Below, in pieces: positions 20,688-42,980 of a DNA stretch of 64,000 bases (its first letter is position 1; each line of letters begins with the position of its first letter). The stretch spans positions 14,012,001 to 14,076,000 of the forward strand of contig CP075493.1 of the NCBI GenBank assembly GCA_021613535.1, given 5' to 3'. This DNA comes from Adineta vaga (taxonomy: Eukaryota; Animalia; Rotifera). The notes beneath the pieces are model-generated. The model did no database searches and was not told where the DNA came from. It was given only the letters and a program-made list of their open reading frames with translations. Both the position numbers and the translations under genes were made by a program.

Positions 20688-22230
20688 CAACAAGAAAACA
20701 TTTTGTACATGATTTTTCTTATTTTCAATAAAAAATCCAATCGAGATCATAATTTAGAAAACAAAACTCACTCACTTTCATAAGAATTATTGGAAGAAAC
20801 TGAAATGAGACGAATATGTTTAATTCATTTTATCTCTTTTGTGTATATACAATATAACGATGAGATTGAGAGAAAAATTCAAGTAAATATATTGACGAAA
20901 AAAACATTCATTGACCTTTAAAACATCATGTTCGATTGTTATATTGTATTCATCTTATATGTATTTTTACGAATTTGAATCTTCTTCCTTTGACATTTAT
21001 CACATCAATGTTTCGAAAATATAATAGAAAGAGTGTGTTTATTCTTTACTCACATCTTCATCTGATCCATGTGACATACGATAAAGTCATTCTTTTGCCT
21101 TTATCACTTTTCCAAGTTAATATAATAACCTTTTATGAGTAGATAGAGATTCCTATGCATTGGTTATATATAAAAAAAACGTTATTTACATATTAATCTT
21201 CATTTATTTCAATTCCATTATTAATACAGATGCACCAGAGACAGCTATTTGTCGAGTTCACAACCGTAAAGTTTTTGTTGTAGCATTCAGATAAGTGAGT
21301 CAAGGGAGGAAAAACAATCACAACGTTCACAATCTAGATCATGAAGATGTACGCGTTTTTGTAGTCCTCATCAGTAAGTTCATTTACATTTATTATTTGA
21401 TTCTCCATGTATTTTTTGTTTCTATTTGAAAATAATTATCGACGTACGGGAATCGTATTGATATTGGTGAAAGAGAAAATGAGATTCAATATCCTTTGTT
21501 CATTCTTATTCTCATTTTACATTTCAATCCTCAGTTTCTCAGTTCATTAGAATTAGCATGTTAGGATTGATTTGAAGAGAAAAAAACAAAACGAGCAAAA
21601 ATGATACTTTGAATGAGTATATGTTCGTTAGTATCATATGATCAACTAGACGTGATAGTAACAGTATGAATGAAAATGTATTGTATCTTTATAGAACTGA
21701 AAAAAGAGCGAGAAAAATATTCGACGGTACTATAGACGAAAGAAAAATGAGAAGATACTTCGACTGTCTAGATAACAGCTCGTTTAGTATTGTAATGGGA
21801 GAAAAATTTTTTTGAAACATGAGAACACAACAAAGCATCTCACACATGTATGGCATCAAATGAAGAAATGCGTTATCAAGAAAAGAAATATATAAATATA
21901 TATATGCAAACACGTGGATAGAATCCATGAGATTCGTTACTTCCGTTGTCTCTCGAAAATATGACGCTTCTGCCGATATTATTCATCGTATAACATGCAT
22001 GGCGAACTTTGCCCTCACTGATTTTTTTCAACTATATCAGCATGTAATGAAGGCTGTTCTCTTTTCTTTACATATATATGTATGACATGGAATCGTTAAC
22101 ATCAAAAGGCACAATTTATTCTGCACTTCATGATAACATGTTGTTTTTTTCTCCAGTATCACTCGAACCAGATGCTTTTAATGTTCTCTATTTTTATTGT
22201 TTTCTCTTTCAGATTATTATTGCACTGTAT

Positions 22231-22701
22231 ATGGCTTTTCTGAAACGTCTCAGTATTCAATACCGACAGCTTCTGAAAGATCCAGCTCCGTATTGCTATG
22301 CAGAACCGAAGGATCTTGAAAACGATATCACACATTGGACGGGATATATCGATGGTCCAGAACAAACTCCTTATGCCGACGGAAGATTCTATCTCGATAT
22401 CGATTTTCCATCAGATTATCCATTCAAACCACCGAAGATTCGTTTCACAACGCCAATCTATCATCCAAATATAAGTACGAAAGGCGAAATATGTTTGGAT
22501 ATTCTTCATTCTCAATGGTCTCCAGCATTGAGTATTCGCGCACTCTTAATATCTCTATGCTCACTATTGACTGACCCAAATCTCGACCATGGATTGAATC
22601 GAGAAGCATTGGGATGCTACCAAACAGATCAGAAACAATATCAAGAAAAAGTAATCGAATGGACACAAAAATATGCTTCGAAGCAGCGAAGTTCAAATTA
22701 A
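22231..22701 (+). CDS. Ubiquitin-conjugating enzyme E2 (UBE2D/E-like)
   Basis: GPEQTPYADG, YPFKPPKIRF, YHPNISTKGEICLDIL (catalytic Cys), WSPAL; likely start MAFLKRL at 22231. Confidence 0.93.
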   Translation: MAFLKRLSIQYRQLLKDPAPYCYAEPKDLENDITHWTGYIDGPEQTPYADGRFYLDIDFPSDYPFKPPKIRFTTPIYHPNISTKGEICLDILHSQWSPALSIRALLISLCSLLTDPNLDHGLNREALGCYQTDQKQYQEKVIEWTQKYASKQRSSN

Positions 22702-23657: not shown

Positions 23658-24129
23658 TGTACTTCCATAGAAAAGTACAACCAAAAAAGTTGTACTTTTG
23701 ATTTATATCGTCTTGTGTCAATAAAAATTTTAAAAAAAGAGAAGTTGTTATTAAATAGTATTTCTTCATTTTCTATCAACTAATTGTGAGATTGTTGGCA
23801 AGATCTTTTTTTTGCGAAGTTGATCAAGTACCATACATGATTTACATATCAATCAAAAAGAGAGACAAAACCATCTTAACATGTACACTTTTTCGCAATA
23901 TGAAAAACTTGCCACTTATCAGACTCAAATTTCCGACTTCGATAAATTTAGAATCATCTGTTTGTTTTTGGGATAGATATTAACACACTGCATGTTCAAC
24001 TTTACATCAGAAATATGGAGATTGAGTATAAAAAGTTGGTAAGACCCCCGTCTTTGTATGATTACAAAAACTTTTTTGATGTTTTCGTCACGTCAATAGG
24101 TAATAACTTCTTTAAATTATTTTAAAAAT

Positions 24130-25300
24130 GCCAACGTTATAGAAGATTTCAATCGCCTTTTCATACTATCATAAACTCTGCCAATATTATTGTAGACTGT
24201 GCCTATATCTGGATGACTGGAAGAAAGATATTTTTCTCTAATGTTGAGTACCTTTTGATATGCAAGAAAAGCATTTTGATAGTCTCCCGTTTCCTTGTGA
24301 ATTATACCGATAGTATTATATATCGTAGCCAGACAAATATGATCGGATATGGTAAACCCATTTATTGAACTCCATCAATGGATTTCTGGTAGAAAGAGAT
24401 TGCTCCGGTGTATTTGCCTTTATCGGTTGAAATCAAACCTAAAGAAAGGTATAAATAACTTCGTTCGACATGATTGTCGACAGAGCATGATCTGAGCATC
24501 AACTGATATATTTCTTCAGCTTTGTTATATTCGGCCATTAAATCAGCAAGAGAATGAAATACAATTCGTCTTGATATTTGTCTTCACAAACTTTGAGTGA
24601 CTATAGGAAGGTGTTGATCATTATCTGTCGTTGCTGTGAATTGAGCTTGCCAGTAATCTTCATCTGTTCTCGTGATTGCACCAATTCTAAATACACTGTG
24701 CATAGAAAATAAGGTTTCATCTTCTCCAGCGGATAGAGTAAGATGTTCTAACTATGCAAATGATGCCGATGTGTTCGTTGATTTGATTGTGATTTCAAAT
24801 AGGATTGGTACAATGTTAGAATCTTGTGAATGAATTAGACAATAGGTTAGTGCTAAGTTTTTTTTGAATATTAGCGAACAATGGACATTCCTTGACCACA
24901 ATAAACAATCAGAGGAAATGTTAAACTAGACGATTGCAAAGAATATTCATGTGCAATTTGTCGATTAATATCATTGATGAAAAAACTCATTTGCATAGTA
25001 AGTTCGATAAACGCGCAACTATCTTTTGTATACCACCAAATAGCTGCATTTTCTCTATAGTTTCGTTGAAATTCATCAATCTTACTCAATTTTGATTGAT
25101 CATGATGATATATTTGACGCCATGTATCAATAATTGATTCTTTCAAAGTGCCATCATATGGAAATTCAAGAGGATTTTCTTTCATTAATTGTGAATACAT
25201 AAATAATGGATCAAGTTGATCAATTGTAGTGTTGACGAATTTTAGAATCTTGATTGATATTTATATAGATGATAACAATAGTTTGATGTAAATATTTCGA
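24130..25300 (-). pseudogene. ADP-ribosyltransferase + TPR-repeat protein pseudogene
   Basis: LDPLFMYSQLMKE, AIWWYTKDS, VYCGQGMS, EDETLFSMHSVFRIG, TPRs ..HPDIGTVYNNIGRVY; frameshifts and stops. Confidence 0.85.
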
Positions 25301-29399: not shown

Positions 29400-32090
29400 C
29401 ACCACACAGAACATTTATTAACTGGACTATTTCCTTGATTTGGTTTACAAGAAAATACTCGATCAAATTCAATGAAATTCGATGTTGGACCATTTACTCT
29501 AAAAATAAGAATTTTATTTCGTATAACATTTTATATGAAAGATATAACCTACATTGGGAAGGTGAATGAACACCTTGTTTCATTTGATTTGTAAAATATT
29601 GATTAGTCCCTTTCATACACCATTATTGTTGAGCGAAATTAAGAAAAAACATCTGTTCTATTGAATATTTGTTAAGACTTGCTAATTTTCTATCAACATT
29701 TCTATGAGTCTGTGCCCATGTTTGATAAGCCTACAAAAATCGAATCGATTTAGACACGGATCAATCAATTGATAGACATACAAAGAATGCTTCTTTCAAT
29801 CCACCATTATCAGCAATATTCTCCCTTGTGTTCTAAAAAATATATAAAACAAGACAAGTTTATCGGAATAAATTCGAAAAGAATAAAGAAAACCAGAAGA
29901 TTCACTTGAATTACTGTATAATTATTGTACTGTCTAATTATGCATTCCTTGCGTTGATTGAATGGATTAGTTGTTTCATTACTCCACCATGAAACTTTAT
30001 TTCCATTCTTATCAAATAGTCTACCTGTATCATCAAATCCATGAGTAATTCCATGGACCATAACCGTTCCAATACCTATTTATCGCGTGAAGAACTTCTT
30101 CTTTACCTTAAATCTCTACTTACCACCATAACTAAGATATCTACAAGGAAAATATTCTTTTGAATAAGAGACACATGAAGAAATCTTACTTCGGTGCATC
30201 TTTATGGAAGAAAGGTGGTTGAAGAATACCAGCCGGAAAACTTATAGAGAAATGAAGATATTGCACTGAGAGAAATCTTTATTATATATTACAAATATCA
30301 TTCAATGATGGATTATATTCTGTACAATCAACAGACTGCCGAAGTGATTGAAGACGACGTTTAAGATTTACTTTAAGTACAATCAAAAGATTTTGCATTA
30401 AAGATGAATTGAAATTCTGCTAAATTCAAAAAAGAAAATCCTCTTTCACATACTTCGGCGTATAGTTGTTCCAGTTTTGTCATATTATCACCATCTAAAT
30501 AGTTAGGATAACCTATTTTTTCATTGATCGCTTTCGCCTATTAACATATAACATATCTTTCTTTATTTCGAAAAATTGAATCGTTTATCGTACTTTTTCA
30601 ATTGCTCTATTTTTTGAATCTGAATCCATCCATGTTGATTGACTGACAATATCTATGAGTGTATTTCGAATATTGCTGATCATTTCACGAGACTAGAATA
30701 GAGTAGACAAAAAAAATTACCGAAGTAATCACAAGATTAAATATACTTAATTGTATGAATTTCTATCAAAATATTTATTTATGTAAAGTTATCAATGAAA
30801 TATTACGTAAATAGTCAAGTTCACTGATAGTAACAGTATCTGTTTCGATAAGAGGGATGTTTGCCGAAAGATAGAGACGACGAAGATGATAAATTGTTCG
30901 ATGTTGTTCGAATCGTTTCTTTATCGCAAGCGCTTTGTTCTGCTGATGTCCAAACATACTGAATAGTGAAAAGAAATCAGACACTTGTACATCGAGAGAA
31001 AATAATTATACTTTAGAAATGAATTGCTCTAATTGATATATAGCATTAACATCATTATCCACCATGATGTATCATTAGTTAAAGCTGATGCGAAATCTTT
31101 GATAAATTTTCGATAAGCTCGCGTAATATCAGTTTCATTCAGATAAGAATTACGATCTCCTAACACAAGATACTCTTGACTAATCTTAAAGAAAAAACAA
31201 TATTAATTCTTTATCGAAATTTGATAATTCATCATTTTACTCGAATATTTTGAGCTGATGAATTTTTCATATCAATTTCTGTGCCTGCTTTAAACATTAC
31301 ACTGCTACTGTAATCACTATATATTGGCATAATGTGAGTAATAGATGAGAAAGATTAAATTTTGATTCGTTCTATGTTGAACCTTGTAAAATAGGCCAAC
31401 CACCAAGTTCTCGATTGATAAACGTGAGAATTACATCGACATCTTCTACTTCGATTACATCTTCATTCACACAAGATGTATACATGCGACGTGCATTGAT
31501 AGTTGCTTTGAGTTCAACCATTTCATTCAGAGGTTTGGATGAAAGAAGATCTGAAAAAGAAAACAAGTGAATGGAATATCAAAATAATTTGTTTCTTACC
31601 ACCGATAATGTTGTTCAATTTCGTTCCTATTTCTCTTCCTGTACTTTGTGAATTAGCTAAAAATTGAATTGTAAACATAAATAACGAGAGAGAGAGACGG
31701 AGAGTACCATCATCTGGTATTCTTGCATTTTTTATCCATTTCCTACAAGCGAATTCATAAAAATTCTCGCATGAATCCATCGTTTCATCAATATTTTCTA
31801 GTAAAACATTTGTTGGAAAGACAGAATACAATATGAGTACATTACTCAATATTCTAACCTGCTTTTATACAATAAGGAGTTAGACATAATTCATCATTTT
31901 TCGCTAAGATTATTTTCAAGATTTCTTTTTGAATGTTCAGGTATATATTGAATGATTACCCATTGTTGTTGTTGTTGTTTCCTTTCGTTCATTTCCATAT
32001 AAAACACCTAGAACAATTATAGTTGCGAGAAGAAGACCAGCAAGAATATCAAATAATATTAATATCCATATTTTGCTATGTTTTCGTGAA
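29400..32090 (-). pseudogene. Neprilysin/ECE (peptidase M13) pseudogene, multi-exon
   Basis: N-terminal TM, DSCENFYEFAC, ELGGWPIL, FPAGILQPPF, HGITHGFDD (HExxH Glu lost), ENIADNGG, HSPS, KCSVW; several stops. Confidence 0.88.
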
Positions 32091-38069: not shown

Positions 38070-40063
38070 ATGATAATGCGCTTAAAAGTATCTTTAAGTA
38101 TAGAAAATGGTTTATTGAACATGTATGAATATGAAATAACAGTGAACAATATATCGATAATAAGTGAGAAAATATATGAACACAGTTATATTAGGATTCA
38201 ACGACTTGATGTATTTCATCGACTATTGCATTCTACTCTCGATCGTTCTACTACTTCTAGTCTGTCTGCAGAATGTTCATCGAAAGGATTTGTTGAAGAT
38301 AAACGGTTACTTGTGCAATTTCAACTACTTATGGAAATTTTACTTCGTCTTCCGATTACCGAAAAGAGTAAAAATGACTTTATAAGTTGGTGTCGTGAGC
38401 AGTATTCTAGCAATCCTGCTGATAACAGCGCTATAGATTTATTCGCTTCAACATTTAAGATTGGTGATGCAGTTAATTGGTACACGAGAAATTCATTTCT
38501 TTATCGTACATTAAATCAAATGTTTAGAACTAATAATCTTCGATTAATATACAGAAGTCGCTATTTTGTTGGTCATCTATACAGCGAACTGAAGAAAGTC
38601 TATGAAGAGACCTGGCCATTTTTCAATCCTCAAACTTATATTTATCGAGGAACATCAATGCCTTGCAAAGAGTTTCATACATTCAAGGCGGATAAAGGTA
38701 AACTTGTCTCGACAAACTGTTTCCTGTCAGCTACATTCAATAAAAATGTGGCTGTTTGTTTTTCGGGGAAAGATATAAATAGAACCGACTACGTTTCAGT
38801 TATATTCGTTATGCTCATCGATGCGTCTAACAATAAATCAAAACCATTTGCACCGATCCAAAATTTAAGCACGATGAGAGATGAAGAAGAAGTTCTTATT
38901 GCACCTGGAGTGATATTTCAAATTGAACAGATAACCTAACTGGAAGTATGTTACATGTTTAGAAGAATTTCATTTTTTTTTGCTAATCTAATCTATTTGT
39001 AGGAAAATGTATTCGAAGTCAGATTAGTTCATACTTTGAAAGAGAAAGAGCTTGAACAAAATATTCTTCATGCAAAAACAATTTATTTGGAAAAAGCTCG
39101 AAAAATCGAATCAGTTGATGACTTTGAGTCATTGATCGACGAGGCTTTAATTGAAATAGATGATCACAAAATGTTCTCAATCTCTATGATTGATGATAAG
39201 CAAAAAGGTATATGAAAATTGAATGTATCAGACTTCTCTATATGTATTATCTATTCTATAGATCATCCATCTGTAGAGTCTCAATCGACACCAATGATCA
39301 AGTCATATATAAAACCTCATGAAAAAGGTAAATCTTACGAGTTTCATTCTTCATACGGATATAAAGTATCAAATTTTTTCTTTAAAATCTGTCAATTTTG
39401 TAGAACACCATCGTAAAACATGTTTGATGTCCTTATCTCTGTCAGAATCTACACTGAAATATCTATACACTGAAGTGGCACGACTTCGAACATCAAATAC
39501 TCGTAGTGATGGTTCTATTATATTCATAGTTGATCAAACTCTTTTTGATAATATGGATGATGACGATGATGATAATTCATTGATATCAAATGCTATCATC
39601 TGTCGATTGTTTCCACGTCAATATATTTATAATCAATGTGCTTATCAAATTGAAATACAACTGTCAGCATCTTATCCACTTTCTCCACCGAAATTGTGTT
39701 TTCTCACTCCAATTTACCATCCAAATATTAACAAAAACGGTGAGAAAAACTTGATGAGATCAGGTTAACTTATCTTTATTCTATTCTATGTTTTCTTTTC
39801 AGGTGAAGTTTGTCTAAATATTCTTGAAAACACTAATTCATGGTCAATGAAATCATCACTAATCACCATTTTAATAGCTAGATGATCTTATTGATAATCC
39901 CAATATTGATACAGCTCTCAGCATAGGTTAGTATTCTTAAATGTCGAGTTAGTTATTAATCTATACTATCTATTTAGATAAAGCACTAGATTTACAGAAT
40001 AGAACTGAATTCAATCGTAAAGCATTCGAAATGGCAAAGAAATTTGGTTTACCGCGACAATGA
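38070..40063 (+). pseudogene. ADP-ribosyltransferase (R-S-E type)-ubiquitin-conjugating E2 fusion; one stop and one frameshift in this copy
   Basis: Exons ~38070-38945, 39003-39208, 39262-39328, 39404-39739, 39803-39926, 39978-40063 with compatible phases; ART motifs YRG, FLSAT, DEEEVL; E2 motifs YPLSPPKLCFLTPIYHPN..GEVCLNIL..W; TAA at 38937-38939, frameshift at ~39880. Confidence 0.8.
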
Positions 40064-40317: not shown

Positions 40318-42980
40318 TTAAAATCGTTCATAATCTCCTTTTCTACTGCTTTTTCGCTGCTGATTATAAACAGATTGATCTTGAATAGTCATCGTTTTTA
40401 TATTCTTTCTTCCAATGAACATCATTCGTTTTTCCATTTGTGATTGACTGAAAGATTTCTTTCGTCGATAGATTAACGTTGGATTTCGCAATAAGAATAC
40501 AGCTAAATACCATCGATGTCGTGCTTTTGTCCAATGTATCGTTTCTTCTTTGTACAAATGTTCACGAAGTAAAATACTAGTAAAATAGAGTAATACAGGA
40601 TGTCGATGAGCACATTCGATATGAATAAAAGCACAATAAGCATTGAAACCCGCATCGAATGTTTCCAATTTTCGACCCATAGGAGAATAATCCAAACGAG
40701 ACATATAGATCATTCCACCAATAGCACTTTTAATTACACGCATAATTGAAGAAATCAAACCAAGAAATGCATCAAGGAAAAAATTAAAATATAAGAATAT
40801 CATCAATATTCTCCGATGATTTATGGATAAAACTTCACCTGCTTGTTGAAGAAAGATATATTGACCAACGATTTTATTCATATAGGTTTGAAAAATAGCG
40901 AAAAGTATTGGAGGAATAATAATTTTAACAACCGATTCAACTGATCTTATCATTCCATAAATAATAACAACATTTATGACAGTACCAACGATCATCGTGA
41001 AAACTGCAATTAGAATATATGCCCATAAAACATAAGCAATTAAATAACCAGCAAAATGAATATTTTGACAAGCATAATTGACATTCTTCGACGAATCATA
41101 TCGTGTTATTTCTGTACTATTACCACGAAATGCTTGTAAAAGATTTCGACGAATAGCAGCGAATAAAACAAGTAATTGGATAATACTTACAGTAAGAGCA
41201 GTGAATATAGCAATTAAATAAGGATAAACTAAATTAGGGAGAGGAAAACTCTTTGGTAAATTTTTCAATTGTTTTAAACGGACATCATCTTCTGCTGATA
41301 TATTTATCAATGCATTGATTATATTTTCAAAAACATTATGCAATGAATGAAGAATTGGTGGAACTTGAACGCATGCCTATAAATGATTGGAAATATGAAA
41401 TGATTTTTTGTCTTTTAGTTCGTTTACCTGTACAGTAAGAAAGAAAAGAAGACAAAAGATTGATGCATAAACACAAAGTACACGTGCTGAAAATTGAAAA
41501 TCATCTTGCCAAAGATAAATACGTTGAAAAAGATTCGATGATAATTTCTTTTGATTGTTGAAACCAAATAATTTCTGAACATATCGATATTCCGTTGACC
41601 AAGGTAATGATGAATGCAAAAGATGTTTTTCTTCACTGGTTAATTGTTTGCTTTCCATACGTTTATTACGCATTCGTTGGAAGAATAATTTCGGTAATTC
41701 AGTACTTATATATCCTAGAAAACAATAGCGAGGAATGTCAAATAGTAATTGAAAGAAAATCAGTTTTGATCCATGTCCATAGTAATCCAAATATACGATT
41801 GTAAAATCACTTTCAGCACTTTGATTAAAATTTACATTGTTTAGATAGTATTCATTACGACAGACACCATCGGAAGCGAGGATTAAACCAAAATCAAGCC
41901 AAGCATATAGAGTAGCACAAAATAAACTAAATCGACTATCGATATACACTGCTGCTAACATTGGATAACATCGAAAGCCAATAATAAGTACTTTGAAAAT
42001 CTGAAGAGCGTAATTGATAATAATACCTTTATCTGTCGTTGACGTGTTTCCATTGATAAGTTGAATTGCGATAGTGAATAATTCATCAGCAAAGATTGCG
42101 AATATAACTGCAGAAAATGTCCGTTGAACACATGTAAAAAAATCCAATGGAATAGGTAGAGCAAAATAGTTCTTCCATGTTTGTTTTCGTTGAAATGATT
42201 GTCTTTTTGCAGTAAGAATAACAAATAGAAGAATAAGAAAGCAAGCAATAGGAAATGTGACAATATTAATATCGTCTTGAACATAGATTCGATCACAAAA
42301 TGAAGGCCGATTGTAAAACAGAGATTGATTGTTGTGTAGTTTGTCGATAATCTCTTTATGAATACCATTCAAAGCGATTCCTTTAATAATAGTTGCACAT
42401 ATACCGAGAATAACAGTTCCAATTAAAGTTATCCATGATGAAATTCGATAAGATGATCCAGTTGTTTTAATAGTAGGTAGAAATGACGATTTTTGTGTAA
42501 CAGTTTTAGGAGTTACACTAAAAGAAAATCTCAAATAAAAACAAATGAAAAATAGTTGTTCTAGTCGACATACGCTTTTGGTTGTCTACATTTCTTACTG
42601 ATCGAACGATATAAAGCTAACCATAGAAGACGACAACGAGAAGACCGGTAATAACACCAAGAGTAATAACTTGTTTGCCACTGCTTGATACTATTAATAG
42701 AAAAGAATGAAGACATTTTCAAACAACTGTTTCTAAGCATTTACATTTATCACACAATTTTCCTGACCACCAAAACTTGCAATCACATGTCCATGATCCA
42801 TCGAAATGATCTTCACAATAGCCATATTTTCCACATAAATTCAAAGTTGAACAATCTGTAATCGTGATAGATGATAAAACTGAAATACGATTTCAAATTC
42901 ATTTTGTTAAACCTACTATTTTGTGACGATGTTATTCTTTCACGTCTCGTTCGGTTAAGTGAAAGATCATTCGACATCAT
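40318..42980 (-). CDS. STRA6-like multi-pass membrane receptor with N-terminal EGF-like module (TAG at ~42618 in an upstream exon)
   Basis: DDFQFSARV, RLDYSPMGRKLETFDAGFNAY..IECAHRHPVL, ARHRWYLAVFLLRNPTL; upstream exon CSTLNLCGKYGYCEDHFDGSWTCDCKFWWSGKLC. Confidence 0.82.

Follow-up and report, generated by a model that had tools for sequence, protein, structure and literature searches.

Single-chain proteins that join an ADP-ribosyltransferase (ART) to a ubiquitin-conjugating enzyme (E2) are known from fungi, where the PARP-Ubc family (clade 6A PARP, fPARP2) carries an ART followed by a C-terminal E2 with its catalytic Cys kept (Citarelli 2010 PMC2964712; PMC13720257; bioRxiv 10.64898/2026.07.25.740670). 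In the accessible parts of these sources, the fungal proteins combine a PARP6-like ART of the diphtheria-toxin class with an E2 of the UBE2Q subfamily, have one origin, measure ∼1150 aa, and the function of the pairing is uncharacterised. The SidE family, CteC and DTX3L-PARP9 likewise couple ADP-ribosylation with ubiquitin, but according to the available text of PMC7827354 SidE relies on a phosphodiesterase and involves no E2, CteC consists of an ART alone, and Deltex works with a separate E2 and a DTC domain that is not an ART. AACRNL, which is also found in rotifers, belongs to a different family, with an H-Y-Y ART and an N-terminal ubiquitin-like domain (PMC12957317, accessible part). Bdelloid rotifers have an ART-TPR family (PF01129/PF03496), with 431 A. 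vaga genes standing under GO:0003956 in the part of PMC11258130 Supplementary Data 3 that could be consulted.

Here we analysed a 64,000-nucleotide stretch of the Adineta vaga contig CP075493.1 (the window), in which an ART of the R-S-E class is joined to a UBE2L3-like E2. Like the fungal PARP-Ubc proteins, the rotifer fusion is a predicted single chain with a C-terminal E2, but its ART is of the R-S-E class, and the E2s of its family are UBE2L3-like or outside that clade and come from at least two sources. Pfam scans of the rotifer fusions for a PARP6-like catalytic domain returned no PARP family; the rotifer and fungal fusions are convergent, and not homologous as fusions. The rotifer fusions also contain no phosphodiesterase beside the ART, since the same scans show only ART and UQ_con and the window gene has no room for one. 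SidE and CteC were not among the sequence or fold matches listed, an absence that excludes neither.

The rotifer ART-E2 family is real, conserved and apparently undescribed. We found no paper on it, in a literature coverage that leaves out most subscription papers and with the domain pair visible in database annotation, and it is not described in the accessible text of PMC3417536, PMC11354881 and PMC3482391. A preliminary description of the locus knew of no characterised single-chain arginine-type ART-E2 in animals; we found no paper describing the rotifer family either, though the layout precedent of the fungal PARP-Ubc proteins had been missed.

Results

Layout of the fusion gene

The gene lies in AT-rich animal DNA, its introns measure 51–76 nt, and its parts are collected in Table 1. 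The preliminary description had read it as an R-S-E ART with YRG, FLSAT and DEEE motifs, connected through two short exons to a UBE2L3-like E2 with HPN and the catalytic Cys. Every motif was recovered in its place, the layout was confirmed, and Pfam identifies both domains above their curated cut-offs (ART, PF01129, E = 6.1e-7; UQ_con, PF00179, E = 2.4e-11). All five introns are GT-AG with compatible phases (0, 1, 1, 1, 1), again as described. With an X placed at each of two breaks, the spliced model aligns colinearly from the ART to the last residue with A. ricciae and Rotaria homologs that are unbroken. No notable repeats were found.

Table 1. Features of the fusion gene and its neighbours in the window
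Feature	Position	Strand	Remarks
Standalone E2, single open frame	22228..22701	+	UQ_con E = 6.5e-47; outside the fused-E2 clade
Second ART gene, ART-TPR type, pieces over several frames	24117..25260	-	ART profile E = 8e-19; TPR_12 E = 2e-11
M13 peptidase gene fragments	29813..31864	-	No corresponding row in the accessible part of the published gene order (PMC12220480)
Uncertain 5′ end	38070..38194	+	ATG at 38070/38076, open frame; no ortholog homology in segment
ART exon: helical subdomain and R-S-E core	38195..38945	+	Pfam PF01129, motif columns
ART residues	Arg of YRG 38646; Ser of FLSAT 38727; E-x-E Glu 38883/Glu 38889	+	Motif alignment
Stop codon TAA in window sequence	38937..38939	+	Absent in 5/5 covering runs; assembly error is the probable cause
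Intron, 57 nt, phase 0	38946..39002	+	GT-AG; precisely here two A. ricciae models retain a 17-residue insert
Linker exon B, last ART strand and helices	39003..39207	+	Conserved in A. ricciae, R. magnacalcarata
Intron, 54 nt, phase 1	39208..39261	+	GT-AG
Linker exon C, 66 nt, phase 1-1	39262..39327	+	Skipping keeps frame; missing from A. ricciae models; Rotaria linker of similar length
Intron, 76 nt, phase 1	39328..39403	+	GT-AG
E2 exon 1: Met 39427, helix 1, acidic insert, HPN 39718-39726	39404..39739	+	Pfam PF00179
Intron, 63 nt, phase 1	39740..39802	+	GT-AG
E2 exon 2: catalytic Cys 39811-39813; window frameshift near 39877-39880	39803..39926	+	Frameshift absent in 5/5 covering runs
Intron, 51 nt, phase 1	39927..39977	+	GT-AG
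E2 exon 3, to stop 40061-40063	39978..40063	+	1 residue shorter than homologs; 3-base in-frame difference there in 5/5 runs
STRA6-like receptor gene	40318..42585	-	Converges on fusion gene, ends ∼250 bases apart

The start at 38070 is unsure, because homology to the orthologs begins only at ∼38196, although the ATG and open frame from which the gene had been drawn are present. Splicing is predicted, because no spliced read or contig was seen across any exon junction, including 39208/39262 and 39328/39404, the two at which reads had been proposed as a check; the eight runs examined contain no joints (0/8). Among the presumed RNA runs, X12 has three contigs on the 5′ part of the gene, short and unspliced, of which one lies upstream of the ATG and one crosses a possible intron at 38123–38194 without a gap; X13 has one contig of this kind in the same part, and X15 has no contig on the fusion gene. 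That possible intron, also GT-AG, and a short first exon are implied by the gene model of P0001, a named Adineta vaga protein with 100% identity to the window E2 exon. The model omits the sequence around the 38937 stop as well as the segment that holds the catalytic Cys and the frameshift; this public model is wrong, with the catalytic Cys spliced out to bypass apparent assembly errors.

The two breaks in the reading frame

A TAA at 38937 and a frameshift at ∼39880 had been reported for this copy, and both are present in the window sequence. Contigs from all five covering runs (X1–X5, from 4 studies), however, read through 38937 with an open codon, supported at full depth, and stay in frame across 39877–39880, where this holds for both variant contigs; X4 is of unrecorded kind, and one of the four studies may be the window's source, leaving three. 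Since the breaks occur in the window and in none of the five covering runs, they are probably assembly errors, and the living animal most likely carries an open gene. There may also be a stop allele at 38937, as rare alleles can drop out of contigs. The window is locally inaccurate, because the five runs all differ from it at further positions and no run contains more than 0.75 of its words. Between 37800 and 40300, it shows several substitutions and small indels relative to all covering runs. Other ‘pseudogenes’ of the same assembly may likewise be errors.

Fused homologs in three bdelloid genera

Of 92 candidates from a search with the E2 exon, 3 were longer proteins, and each of these has ART and UQ_con; a region search gave 4 among 476 candidates, one of them an unrelated plant protein. 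From a HMMER search with P0003 as query, the best 150 of 13,863 matches were examined. Both domains were found on 19 of the 171 proteins in the collected set, and P0173 came in addition from a profile search with 11 matches among 7,992 candidates. The fused homologs, every one a computed gene model, collapse with the window gene to nine distinct genes in four species of three genera (Adineta, Rotaria and Didymodactylos): A. vaga has P0173 and the partial P0143 besides the window gene, P0002–P0005 of A. ricciae are two paralogs, the P0007 cluster of 12 models in Rotaria magnacalcarata is one gene, and P0024, P0039 and P0040/P0166 of Didymodactylos carnosus are three. The co-occurrence of the two domains, proposed in the preliminary description as a check on its single-chain arginine-type ART-E2 in animals, was thus found, as were intact fused homologs in other genomes, namely unbroken fusions in A. 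ricciae, R. magnacalcarata and D. carnosus, whose gene models support the claim; A. vaga itself has a further unbroken one in P0173.

The score of linker exon B against P0003 or P0007 was reached by 0 of 2000 shuffles; for linker exon C against P0007, 363 of 2000 shuffles reached the score, so the similarity is not significant. The E2 half had been noted to have its own Met (MSLSLSES), which is present at 39427 but which neither the A. ricciae nor the Rotaria fusions conserve. A metagenome scan kept 80 of 85 loci, all of them E2 matches and none with an ART nearby, on contigs of which many were shorter than 2.5 kb. We consider it very probable that this bdelloid gene family is a true ART-E2 fusion.

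The ART domain and its subfamily

An E-x-E in the ARTT loop marks arginine specificity. In the motif columns, R, S and the final E are conserved in all eight full fused ARTs, and the residue two before the final E is E in six of them and D in two; the window ART reads E-E-E at this site and has Met at the aromatic ARTT position. Judged by these residues, the ART part would catalyse arginine-directed, NAD-dependent ADP-ribosylation. R-S-E ARTs are defined by an Arg, a Ser and a Glu, located on strands 1, 2 and 5 (PMC7827354, available portion), and all three are present here. The full R-S-E and E-x-E set also occurs in 132 of 156 unfused ART domains.

The window ART exon and A. ricciae P0004 share 56% identity across 213 columns. 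In a structure model of the homolog P0003 (pLDDT 63.6, pTM 0.46, with a low-confidence linker), the ART part matches R-S-E ARTs at Z 11–14, including HopU1 (Z 13.8, rmsd 3.5, 185 aligned), 6drh_B (Z 13.2, rmsd 2.6, 164 aligned) and ART2.2 (Z 13.0, rmsd 3.2, 193 aligned), and an ART profile run against the PDB found Vis as the best match (E = 4.6e-10). A single-sequence model of the window ART had a pLDDT of 34.7, and phmmer of the window ART against the PDB gave no match. The Foldseek matches listed were E2s only, and Atlas matches, all <0.9, were taken as leads only. Vis, HopU1, the 6drh toxin and vertebrate ART2.2 have the fold (Z 11.9–13.8) and catalytic triad in common with the fusion ART, but at 16–24% identity; they carry no E2 and are secreted, injected or GPI-anchored, whereas the fusion has no hydrophobic leader: a crude hydropathy scan found a strongly hydrophobic N-terminus in 0 of 8 fusions, and the fusion protein is predicted to be cytosolic, without a signal peptide.

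When 164 ART domains were placed in a quick tree, all eight full fused ARTs fell within one 26-row set; set against four TPR-type outgroup rows in a further tree, this group had support of 100/99. The sample is biased toward P0003 neighbours, and the near-identical models P0001, P0002, P0005, P0040 and P0155–P0165 were excluded from the ART trees and the tallies. Among the other 18 rows of this subfamily, 17 stop ≤23 residues after the ART, as expected of gene calls entering an intron, and P0035 runs past the ART without an E2. The fusions have the same ART domain, helical subdomain, R-S-E and E-x-E as the ART-TPR family, but belong to one TPR-less subfamily and carry the linker and E2 in the place where most ART-family relatives have TPR repeats or a second ART; Pfam scans found no TPR repeats after the ART in the fusions.

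The E2 domain and its origins

The window E2 has HPN, the catalytic Cys and, going by the homolog model, the UBC fold. Among the nine fused E2s, eight keep the Cys, with Ser in P0007 of Rotaria, and seven keep HPN, which is altered in two Didymodactylos fusions. UBE2L3 (UbcH7) is the best match of the fused E2 both in sequence (E = 7.6e-23, ∼33% identity, among PDB entries; the trees contain no named UBE2L3 row) and in fold (E2 part of the P0003 model, Z 21.1, rmsd 1.5, 150 aligned). The fused E2 differs from UBE2L3 in an acidic insert after helix 1, in its membership of an expanded bdelloid clade, and in an altered WKP loop, which reads WSM, WKF or WSY in the window gene's orthogroup. The WKP loop binds E3s.

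The E2 tree, which left out P0183 (not an E2) and P0177 (a near copy), places the six Adineta and Rotaria fusions in a bdelloid E2 clade (100/100) alongside standalone members, and the three Didymodactylos fused E2s outside it. The window gene groups with A. ricciae in both the ART and E2 trees (99/97 and 100/99). A single clade of all nine fused E2s is rejected (p-AU 5.7e-6), and for that reason E2s are concluded, from these trees, to have been fused or swapped onto one ART subfamily at least two times; a single clade of the six Adineta and Rotaria fused E2s is not rejected (p-AU 0.18). 

The expanded UBE2L3-like clade, with its insert after helix 1, includes P0049, P0050, P0059, P0061, P0108, P0112, P0141, P0168 and P0172, and two of nine standalone members have Ser at the catalytic position. 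P0172, from Rotaria sp. Silwood2, joins a clade E2 to a flavin monooxygenase on 6 contigs, as a real fusion or as merged genes. P0025 shows a partial tandem duplication.

State of the A. vaga window copy

The orthologs are longer at the N-terminus by 200–670 residues, including a predicted alpha/beta domain, and tblastn and profile searches of the window found nothing that corresponds to the ∼670 N-terminal residues of P0004 (best E = 0.16). Residues 1–95 of P0004 look ubiquitin-like by eye but gave no match in the collected proteins or Pfam.

In the accessible part of PMC12220480 Table S2, FUN_000920-T1 carries PF00179 and PF01129, the only one with PF01129 among the 21 PF00179 rows listed. 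We assigned it to the fusion locus by gene order, as NCBI locus numbers do not map to FUN numbers: a STRA6-like gene lies on one side and fucosidase, GH28 and E2 genes on the other, which is the order in the window. Its baseMean is 0.093 across 16 transcriptomes, which cover hydrated culture and spaceflight conditions only (group means 0.010, 0, 0.016 and 0), and three neighbours have 16.8, 34.5 and 44.0; the last value (44) is that of FUN_000926-T1, which the standalone E2 at 22228–22701 matches. In the same source, a second STRA6-like gene adjoins an E2-only model that is silent (FUN_000854/855); the pair may be a partial duplicate of the fusion-STRA6 block. The M13 peptidase gene in the window is likely broken.

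Under fungal infection, the arginine-ART term GO:0003956 appears in three rows of the accessible part of PMC11258130 Supplementary Data 3, all of them sets of down-regulated genes (two for A. vaga, with 6 and 19 of 431 and FDR 4.3e-5 and 1.2e-12; one for A. ricciae, with 8 of 366 and FDR 0.024); the enrichment is one of the category as a whole. The proposed immune or stress effector is not borne out by these data, with the gene near silent in culture and spaceflight and its category enriched in down-regulated infection sets.

Among the differences listed, 32 are coding, of which 22 are non-synonymous and 10 synonymous (pN/pS 0.59, p = 0.19, not below neutral), in a tally that excludes the break sites and two differences beside an indel and in which some differences may be window errors or close-paralog sequence. 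The E2 portion has 16 non-synonymous to 5 synonymous differences, and 10 cluster at 39816–39866, just after the catalytic Cys. The window copy is either rarely induced or decaying, and it is not the best representative of the family.

Discussion

The reading that we tentatively favour, at somewhat under an even chance, is one cytosolic protein in which an arginine-type ART is tethered to an E2 and acts in cis. Both enzymes would be carried on one transcript, host E1 would charge the E2 with ubiquitin as a thioester, and the tethered E2 would deliver that ubiquitin in cis, such that ADP-ribose and ubiquitin could both end up on one target or on the fusion protein itself. Ubiquitin would then be tied to the target of the ART or to the ART's own turnover, and the role may be control of a potentially harmful ART. 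This is consistent with the unbroken colinear fusions in three genera, the retention of the ART triad (8/8) and E2 Cys (8/9), the match of the P0003 model to R-S-E ARTs and UBE2L3, the conserved linker exon B, the single well-supported ART subfamily (100/99), the lack of a strongly hydrophobic N-terminus in all eight, and the absence of the breaks from every covering run; since an unrelated ART-E2 fusion is retained in 299 fungal proteins, the pairing appears useful elsewhere. It sits less easily with the whole-protein confidence of the P0003 model (pTM 0.46) and its low-confidence linker, with the fused homologs all being computed gene models, and with the short subfamily rows that end near the ART and P0035 that continues without an E2. 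Because Rotaria has Ser for Cys and two Didymodactylos fusions have altered HPN, E2 catalysis is not always needed. Further points against the tethered enzyme are the near silence of FUN_000920-T1 (PMC12220480, accessible part), the missing ∼670 residues of P0004, the pN/pS of 0.59 and the enrichment of GO:0003956 only in down-regulated infection sets (PMC11258130, likewise). Compatible with either mechanism, and with a real family, this copy could be a decaying, front-truncated duplicate without current function, which we hold to be a substantial possibility that falls short of probable: the N-terminal domain is missing, baseMean is 0.093, variation is indistinguishable from neutral and other genes in the window are broken, but the frame is open over ∼1.5 kb of coding sequence in 5/5 runs, GT-AG is intact at all five introns, every catalytic motif is kept, and the expression data in the accessible source cover hydrated culture and spaceflight alone. 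It is very improbable that gene prediction has run together two neighbouring genes, one for the ART and one for an E2 that begins at Met 39427. No junction read was seen, this Met is near the usual start of standalone family E2s, the homologs are predictions and P0172 merges a family E2 with a monooxygenase; in contrast, the ART exon has no stop in reads, exon B is conserved across two genera, Met 39427 is not conserved, neither AATAAA nor ATTAAA occurs from 38900 to the final stop, and the ART-then-E2 order recurs in nine distinct genes of four species.

Integrated decoys are a concept known from plants, and the E2 could analogously be a sensor, bait for parasite effectors whose engagement turns the ART on, with E2 catalysis dispensable. 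Different E2 lineages on one ART subfamily, the E2 sitting in place of TPR repeats, the loss of the Cys in P0007, the changed HPN in 2/9, and the cluster of differences after the Cys, with E2 changes mostly non-synonymous, would all fit, as would the solved structures in which the bacterial effectors OspG, SopA and SidC bind UBE2L3. We nevertheless regard such a decoy as doubtful: eight of the nine fusions keep the Cys, its loss is not peculiar to fusions because two of nine standalone E2s also have Ser, pN/pS cannot separate diversifying from relaxed selection, the gene is near silent in culture (PMC12220480, accessible part). To our knowledge, no bdelloid parasite effector is known either. 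A broader version, in which bdelloid ARTs would be modular immune switches that repeatedly captured E2s as ubiquitin-loaded bait, with effector engagement causing the ART to mark E2-bound ubiquitin or a cell-death target, is unlikely; if true, it would be an animal counterpart of plant integrated decoys. An ART that modifies ubiquitin itself, presented by the tethered E2, to give an ADP-ribosyl-ubiquitin mark or to block ubiquitin use, is distinctly improbable. E2-held ubiquitin would adjoin the ART, whose class and E-x-E are like those of arginine-specific enzymes, and R-S-E ARTs of the SidE family modify ubiquitin Arg42 (PMC7827354, available text), but Pfam shows no phosphodiesterase or other SidE domain in the fusions, and since 132/156 unfused ART domains have the same triad, the triad is not tuned to the fusion.

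ADP-ribose/ubiquitin cross-talk has so far been represented by bacterial effectors, Deltex/PARP9 and the uncharacterised fungal PARP-E2 fusion. As natural proteins of 560–700 aa, the bdelloid fusions are simple in vitro material for the interplay of a tethered ART and E2, and they give a handle on the several hundred bdelloid ARTs, for which we found no paper. They are a second, independent ART-E2 fusion, with another ART class, in animals, and with E2s gained at least two times, and for that reason the pairing of ART and E2 appears to have been repeatedly selected.
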